Assembly (NCBI GenBank): GCA_964016885.1
Contig: OZ024746.1
Coordinates: forward strand, 3,038,001 to 3,102,000
Length of the DNA stretch: 64,000 nt
Reading direction: 5' to 3'
Source of the DNA: Eledone cirrhosa
Lineage: Eukaryota
Below are positions 41,340 to 41,907 of the stretch, in pieces. How positions within the stretch are numbered: the stretch's first letter is position 1; the number at the start of each line of letters is the position of its first letter. The notes under the pieces are model-generated. The model was given only the letters and a program-made list of their open reading frames with translations. It ran no database searches and was not told where the DNA came from. The translations under genes and the position numbers were made by a program.

Positions 41340-41907
41340 ATATCAAGATAAGCAGAACAAGTAAAATTTAATCAATTTTTCAAAATAAATCAAAATTAAT
41401 ATACAATCAAAATTAATTAAAATTAAAAAATACAATATAAATATTTACCTATTCTAATGGCCCTAACTGTACAGTTTCACGGTGCAAAACATTAAATATC
41501 ACGAGGATATTAATGGAAAAGCAACGATCATCAGAGAAGCATTTTCCTGTCCTAGGGTTAAAAACCCCAGGAACGACAAAATATACGACCTCACTCCAAC
41601 TAATACAGGTCTAAAAGGTCGTGAAAGTGACCCGTAAATACATTGGTATATAGTGAAGGCGGGAAATCGGAGACTCGCCGTCTATAGCTCGCCACTAAAA
41701 AAAGATTTTTAGTAACTAAATATAACGACAAATTTTTATCTCTACATACTGGAGATTATTGAAAAAGGTTAATATATAACTGAGGGTACAATGTACCCCC
41801 GGAAATCTATAGTGTGTCTATGATCTAAGGTGGTTCTATGGTAATAATTTGATATACCAGAACATAATATCAAGATAAGCAGAACAAGTAAAATTTAATC
41901 AATTTTT
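41340..41907 (-). mobile_element. 527-bp non-coding unit with 41-bp terminal direct repeat and internal hammerhead ribozyme (Penelope pLTR- or retrozyme-like)
   Basis: atatcaagataagcagaacaagtaaaatttaatcaattttt occurs at 41340-41380 and 41867-41907. No ORF; both flanks are (TA)n. Confidence 0.75.
41460..41540 (-). ncRNA. Type I hammerhead ribozyme fold
   Basis: Minus strand reads gcttct CTGATGA [tcgttgc..cattaatatc ctcgt gatatttaatg..gcaccgt] GAAAC tgtaca GTT agggc. Stem III is the palindrome ACTGTACAGT; the predicted cut follows GUU (41465/41464). Confidence 0.72.

Follow-up and report, generated by a model that had tools for sequence, protein, structure and literature searches.

Animal non-LTR retrozymes consist of non-coding units in tandem, and every unit bears a type I hammerhead ribozyme with a weak palindromic stem III; their GC content is below 50%, they lack LTRs, a PBS and a PPT, and they co-occur with Penelope-like elements, or PLEs (PMC7229834; 10.64898/2026.07.22.740005). 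Their mobilization by PLEs through circular RNA has already been proposed (PMC7229834), and homology has been used to argue that they are non-autonomous PLEs, the mechanism being left unresolved (10.64898/2026.07.22.740005). PLEs themselves leave partial tandems, inverted truncated arms and a 30–40-bp tail, often at one end only, in microsatellite targets (PMC8557442). An in vitro study showed a PLE protein cutting the two strands of AT-rich DNA, extending each of them, and initiating at two positions inside the RNA, the interval between which is the tail; insertion needed no ribozyme cleavage and used unprocessed RNA (PMC11167929). Non-autonomous Chlamys PLEs, such as MRC1 of Chlamydomonas, are non-coding, multicopy, head-to-tail and PLE-mobilized (PMC8557442), and plant LTR retrozymes are non-autonomous, hammerhead-processed elements for which a circular RNA intermediate has been proposed (PMC5680766).

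We analyzed a 64,000-nucleotide stretch of the Eledone cirrhosa genome, hereafter the window (GenBank assembly GCA_964016885.1, contig OZ024746.1, positions 3,038,001 to 3,102,000, forward strand). A sequence-only reading had described the island at 41340–41907 as slightly more than one 527-bp unit of a self-cleaving RNA, set in a TA field. The recurrence on which it rested is exact, with 41340–41380 identical to 41867–41907 over 41 bp at a period of 527. We number the unit q1–q527 on the plus strand (q is the window position minus 41339); the RNA corresponds to the minus strand and runs from high q to low q. One full unit, at 41340–41866, adjoins a 5'-truncated second pass, q1–41, at 41867–41907; as described, the island is thus a complete unit followed by the beginning of another, 568 nt in all. 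The surrounding TA/TATG field is also real and extends over 16 kb (36881–52837), its microsatellite sequence abutting the island on the RNA 3' side at 40729–41339 and on the RNA 5' side at 41908–44239. About ten mobile-element islands lie in this field, along with repeats showing a strong G-over-C strand bias.

The unit looks like a structured, non-coding RNA. No open reading frame of 120 codons lies within its 527 bp, in agreement with the sequence-only reading, and its minus strand folds better than shuffled sequence both in linear form (z −5.3) and as a circle (z −5.9 vs −1.9 for the plus strand, 30 shuffles). A nearby hairpin singled out by that reading is present as ten pairs at 41550–41572, directly upstream of the ribozyme, and pairs better on the minus than on the plus strand. 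An Rfam scan over 5 kb returned TA-repeat noise only. A by-eye assignment of 41648–41693 as a hairpin ribozyme was dropped with its loop out of register.

Searching the 3.0-Gb genome (1796 contigs) yielded 1173 candidate places for the unit, and the best 40 of the 1173, which were scored, were 95–100% identical to it; the lowest identity among copies was about 74%. Exact probes, whose genome-wide counts are lower bounds and whose controls gave 0, matched at least 648 times for a 21-mer near q1, at least 188 times mid-unit, at least 297 times across the unit-to-unit junction, and at least 374 times where the q1 end merges into TA. The 527-bp repeat is thus a young, dispersed family of several hundred copies, multicopy as anticipated. 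For detailed analysis we assembled 122 distinct loci: the 40 best-scoring, which are biased toward long copies, a further 54 on contig C1 that matched the q1 probe, and 28 that matched the mid-unit probe, with 14 duplicates removed. Pieces of the family also occur in contigs of three sequencing runs of unstated kind, two runs from one sample holding many variant pieces and the third a single 225-nt piece; these carry no information on expression or circularity.

The minus strand contains a type I hammerhead motif at 41456–41543, identified by its core pattern and predicted fold. Its order is stem I, CUGAUGA, a long stem II, GAAAC, UGUACA, GUU^A and stem I again, so that CUGANGA, GAAA, UH and an open stem I are all present. 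Stem I pairs 41543–41535 with 41464–41456, the CUGAUGA core occupies 41534–41528, extended stem II 41527–41479 and GAAA 41478–41475, and the palindromic stem III (ACUGUACAGU) lies at 41475–41466, placing the predicted cut in GUU^A between 41465 and 41464 (q126/q125). The core, palindrome and GUU site reported by the sequence-only reading therefore stand: the pattern matched three times in the window vs 0.07 expected, and 0 of 100 shuffles reached three. The other two matches belong to a different hammerhead element at 58860–59120, a head-to-head pair with TA on both sides and cores at 58961–59007 (minus) and 59034–59080 (plus).

Stem II is indeed long and interrupted. It opens with a U.U base, continues through five pairs with one mismatch and an internal loop, and ends in a 10-pair hairpin. 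A U.U at this position occurs in active hammerheads (PMC3088659) and at the stem II base of axolotl HHR_Amex2 (PMC7229834). A covariance-model check, which the sequence-only reading had proposed, did not recover the motif, as Rfam detected no hammerhead over the unit even at E<=5; the insertion in stem II is the probable reason.

The pattern of variation indicates that the fold has been under constraint. An intact core is found in 103 of 111 loci, and position H17 is U or A in 110. None of the 21 sites in the core and stem III has a variant common to at least three loci, vs 112 of 497 sites elsewhere (p=0.012; p=0.056 at a threshold of five loci), while singletons are equally frequent in the two classes (15 in the 21 sites, 291 in the 497). 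One stem II pair is G-C in 80 loci and U-A in 22, and the frequent variants sit in loops, a bulge or wobble positions. Across 16 chosen sequences (13 from this family, two from family C and one from family D) threaded onto the structure of the window copy, 94.4% of cells were paired and 10 of 27 pairs had changed on both sides, compared with 30–42% pairing in slid controls; since these sequences are related, the figures do not translate into a probability. To judge from such comparisons, the ribozyme fold is conserved, with compensatory changes.

Any cleavage of the element would probably involve dimers, as the palindromic stem III indicates (PMC4209133). The computed self-pairing energy of the palindrome is −15.2 kcal/mol, and in the monomer the hammerhead fold is locally not the lowest in energy (−7.6 vs −13.5 kcal/mol); in stem I, two of the pairs are G.U and one position is a C/C mismatch. 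Positions q125–127 account for only four of 138 5' ends (p=0.009 vs uniform, p=0.058 vs local density), two of them copies that stop precisely at the predicted cut without help from TA, a weak hint that cleavage may occur in vivo. For frog retrozyme dimers, 8 of 9 showed no cleavage in vitro (10.64898/2026.07.22.740005).

Insertions of the family begin at fixed points and end at variable ones. The RNA 3' end is fixed in most insertions at S1 (q1–7, minus strand, 41340–41346), where it runs into (TA)n, and a second TA-like site, S2 (q414–433, minus strand, 41753–41772), is used mainly in one arm of inverted insertions. Among 98 simple insertions, 91 start at S1, four at S2 and three are broken, one of those counted as simple, L219, having turned out to be S1+S2 after inspection of its far end; in the C1 sample, TA is found at the RNA 3' end of 74 of 83 arms. 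S1 dominance is no artefact of the probe near q1, because 25 of 28 loci chosen by the mid-unit probe start there as well. In three loci (L118, L218, L231) a third, minor start is seen at q81 or q102, each a TA-like position. The sequence-only reading had looked to circularly permuted start points as a sign of a circular template; free permutation is ruled out, since copies begin at two fixed sites.

By comparison, 5' ends occur anywhere from q20 to q527, clustering at TA-like bases, and most copies are 0.2–2 units long and scattered in (TA)n. The window copy accordingly amounts to 568 nt copied in one run from S1, and the 41-bp repeat marks the point at which the second pass stopped: what had been taken for terminal redundancy is a random 5' truncation point. 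A target-site duplication or LTR was likewise ruled out, as the same sequence occurs at internal junctions and second-pass lengths vary. Having a single ribozyme, this copy could not release unit-length RNA alone and is probably a dead end.

The remaining loci comprise 23 head-to-head insertions and one complex locus. Of the former, 17 combine S1 with S2, one S1 with S1 and one S2 with S2, and four have another or a broken end. Thus 17 of the 19 inverted insertions with both ends at S1 or S2 pair the two sites (p=0.0004 vs 50:50). Between S1 and S2, directly 3' of S1 in the RNA, lies a conserved hairpin (minus strand, 41830–41864) that shares 32–33 of its 35 bases with a sister family, C, and has variants common to at least three loci at 3 of 33 positions. 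It is a candidate recognition signal for the reverse transcriptase.

Two 3' ends, a one-sided tail, partial tandems, inverted arms and a microsatellite target together make up a footprint that, as read from inserted DNA, is the PLE mode of insertion. It closely matches that of EN+ PLEs of the Neptune/Nematis type, which have a CX4CXXC linker and a hammerhead 80–160 nt upstream of the first 3' end (PMC8557442, PMC4209133, PMC11167929); they too have two 3' ends with the tail between them and on one arm only (PMC8557442, PMC11167929), as well as partial tandems, inverted 5'-truncated arms and microsatellite targets (PMC8557442). Autonomous PLEs in this genome follow the same plan, with the ribozyme 78 to 160 nt from S1, then the tail and S2, ending in TA. 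Unlike EN+ PLEs, the unit has no ORF, its tail is about 100 nt rather than 30–40, and it has no DNA similarity to the sampled PLE terminal repeats.

With non-LTR retrozymes the family shares multiple non-coding, head-to-tail copies with one hammerhead per unit, low GC, a self-paired RNA, autonomous PLEs in the same genome, and the absence of LTR, PBS and PPT, judged here from insertion structure. On sequence grounds we therefore class it, with very high confidence, as a new member of the non-LTR retrozymes, a non-autonomous PLE. At 527 nt its unit exceeds the 170–400 nt of invertebrate retrozymes (PMC7229834) and falls inside the 51–972 bp range of 10.64898/2026.07.22.740005. Unlike described animal retrozymes, its stem II has an extra hairpin and its copies are mostly dispersed, with fixed start sites. 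MRC1-type Chlamys PLEs lack canonical hammerheads, whereas the unit has a canonical core, and their 3' ends are like those of their autonomous partners, a likeness not found for the unit (PMC8557442). Plant LTR retrozymes are distinguished by LTRs with a type III hammerhead, by PBS/PPT and by 4-bp target duplications (PMC5680766); the unit shows none of these, and its hammerhead has type I topology.

Tandem multimers, another expectation of the sequence-only reading, are present. In addition to the junction matches noted above, the longest array seen (7.8 units, 4.1 kb) holds 7 full units plus 434 nt; an inverted S2 arm is attached to it, and TA lies on both sides. Two complete ribozymes occur in 33 of 122 loci, in a sample biased toward long copies; locus L002 is a natural dimer. 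In the C1 sample, 66 of 83 arms run through the cut site, and 15 of these do so twice; the template was therefore a circle or an uncleaved multimer, or it was jumped. Adjacent units within loci differ at 14.8 per 1000 columns vs 48.0 between loci (88 pairs), or by 1.0% vs 3.5% in a separate comparison. Adjacent units also share 16.7 minor alleles per 1000 vs 4.5 between loci (3.7-fold), and 22 locus-private alleles, across 14 loci, are present in both units. Among the seven full units of the longest array, neighbors differ at 17.8 positions and non-neighbors at 17.3 (range 14–23), and 50 of 57 minor alleles are private to one unit. Because these units have diverged star-like, without a neighbor effect, the array fits a single copying event with later decay and does not fit stepwise local amplification. 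By itself, it is also compatible with a young linear master array transcribed as linear RNA.

What form the template took divides the two best accounts of the family. We consider it probable that the 527-bp family is a non-LTR retrozyme for which a PLE supplies the reverse transcriptase and endonuclease, the RNA that is copied being probably circular. The alternative, unlikely though worth serious weight, keeps the same PLE-dependent element and has it copied from linear RNA, through read-through of uncleaved tandems or template jumps between monomers, with the ribozyme serving another step. In vitro, PLE reverse transcriptase does initiate internally on linear RNA without needing ribozyme cleavage (PMC11167929), template switches are visible in L117 and L134, and both the long arrays and the two-ribozyme loci of our long-copy-biased sample sit well with such templates. 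Linear cleaved RNA was probably used at times, because two copies end exactly at the cut. Yet truncation during linear copying can only make arrays shorter, and from a start at S1 the hairpin would be missed unless the template continues round; even so, arrays of several units are found both in the main cluster and in three diverged lineages. Differences tied to unit position are not repeated from locus to locus, one site and artefacts at TA-rich ends excepted, and errors or ends do not accumulate at the cut, as repeated jumps would suggest. In related elements, moreover, circles are the main RNA form (PMC7229834). For these reasons a circular RNA template seems to us somewhat better than an even bet.

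A GIY-YIG search returned 10,597 candidates in the genome, including two young PLE groups with long open frames and a CX4CXXC linker. The first, the L139 family, is Neptune-type, young and TA-targeting, and Pfam confirmed its RT and GIY-YIG domains. The second, PLE-X, has 37,274 candidate places, the best 150 of which were scored and are 97–100% identical; one example of an intact frame is at C4:370889365-370892922. Its protein gave no match in Pfam and is placed as a PLE by pairwise blastp identity to the Pfam-confirmed L139 protein, 24% over the RT region (E 5e-16) and 27% over the endonuclease. S1+S2-like pairing is seen in all five PLE-X loci with ends on both strands. The window itself contains a PLE-X 3' fragment (46134–46398, plus strand; 92–93% identical) that carries its own short hammerhead and ends in TA.

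Two of the 122 loci are chimeras with PLE-X. At L117, a 560-nt PLE-X 3' piece is joined without TA to the unit at q7, beside S1, and an inverted S2 arm follows; at L031, a PLE-X piece lies head to head with a 1.2-unit copy. Neither obeys the S1+S2 rule, and with PLE-X so abundant we regard them as no more than suggestive of PLE-X as the helper. No TA-free chimera of the unit with the L139 family was found, L111 abutting an L139-type 3' end through TA. At L013, L033 and L106 the unit is joined head to head to other hammerhead elements, only at L033 without residual TA. Mobilization in trans, as the sequence-only reading had supposed, is most likely by a PLE, given the S1+S2 signature and the chimeras. 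That a PLE helper mobilizes the family is highly probable, and PLE-X, very young, abundant and apparently intact, is the likely one.

The unit could instead be a solo pLTR, or an internally deleted autonomous PLE, amplified locally by unequal crossover. Its palindromic stem III and long stem II are ribozyme features of the PLE type (PMC4209133), and retrozymes have been derived from pLTRs, with local amplification invoked (10.64898/2026.07.22.740005). A PLE ORF runs in sense into the 5' side of the unit in 0 of 122 loci, so that copies are not tied to a Penelope RT/GIY-YIG ORF, and at the junctions, matched at least 297 times, the two ends of the unit meet directly, leaving no space for one. 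The unit is also absent from about 67 PLE-protein loci, a minority of the PLE families in this genome, and has no significant DNA similarity to any PLE repeat sampled; a 16-nt match of its 3' end to a Neptune-type 3' UTR (E 1.8) lies mid-UTR and was taken as chance. With no attached ORF and no significant similarity, the unit is not a solo pLTR of the sampled PLEs. Arrays that end in fixed start sites and TA, and a 7.8-mer without neighbor similarity, largely refute local amplification; a remote pLTR ancestry of the unit is possible, and the reading as a whole is improbable. Least probable of all is a SINE-like element moved by a LINE or other non-PLE reverse transcriptase via a (UA)n tail: LINEs, too, show inversion, truncation on the 5' side and a fixed 3' end in TA, and LINE-like ORFs exist in this genome, yet two internal starts, S1+S2 pairing, tandem units and PLE-X chimeras are traits of PLEs.

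The retrozyme reading suggests the following sequence of events. Loci with at least two ribozymes would be transcribed on the minus strand, and the ribozymes would pair through their palindromic stem III and excise a 527-nt monomer, which a host ligase might circularize. The PLE protein would bind near the hairpin between S1 and S2 and nick (TA)n. cDNA synthesis would then begin inside the RNA, at S1 (125 nt to the 3' side of the ribozyme cut) on one DNA strand and at S2 on the other. The enzyme would circle the template and stop at random, giving from less than one to at least 7.8 units, and the 5' end would join TA by microhomology, or two arms would join head to head. More tentatively, and somewhat short of an even chance, the family may be a record of rolling-circle target-primed reverse transcription, in which a PLE dimer sits on one circle, both strands of the TA break are primed at the fixed sites on either side of the hairpin, and up to about 8 units are written per event.

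If so, PLE-X would serve as helper to a retrozyme despite having no sequence in common with it, retrozyme tandems would arise at insertion instead of through local amplification, and a 527-nt circle would be a minimal donor for PLE insertion studies. The rule is obeyed by at least one sister family as well, the homologous 466-bp family C. This young family displays a PLE insertion footprint on an ORF-less ribozyme repeat. With precise start sites, a precise predicted cut site and a named, apparently intact candidate helper, the retrozyme life cycle and the origin of tandem and inverted PLE structures become directly testable in vitro. In the literature outside subscription journals, Repbase/Dfam and supplements, we found no account of the 527-bp family and no report of fixed start sites or single-event multimers for any retrozyme; the available portions of PMC7229834 and 10.64898/2026.07.22.740005 give no account of start sites, S1+S2 pairing or single-event multimers. 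The sequence-only reading's suggestion of an undescribed family may thus hold, as the family appears undescribed; the kind of element is already known.

Family C, the 466-bp homologous sister with a long stem II and a near-identical hairpin, has 2364 candidates (for example L140:6510-7419 and L239–L258), and its inverted copies also pair their two ends. Unlike those of the 527-bp family, its simple copies end mostly at S2. Family B (L159–L188) is a hammerhead repeat of about 310 bp with the same core and U.U base and a short stem II; it is TA-targeted, tandem and inverted, with several fixed 3' ends, and its core pattern gave 338 exact matches, mostly family B among the matches listed. In the terminal repeats of Neptune-type PLEs (L139, L072–L099) the hammerheads are minimal, their core showing the U3-A8 variant and their stem III the palindrome ACCGGU. 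Other hammerhead families were seen at L062:817-912, L004:1053-1144, L149, L154, L157 and L176, several of them having an extended stem II, and the genome holds many unannotated ribozyme repeats. Elsewhere in the window, a dispersed 64-bp tandem repeat family occurs at 12795–12990, 15547–15669 and 57940–58199, and there are arrays of a 75-bp repeat (20361–21201) and of a perfect 27-bp repeat (34555–35094).
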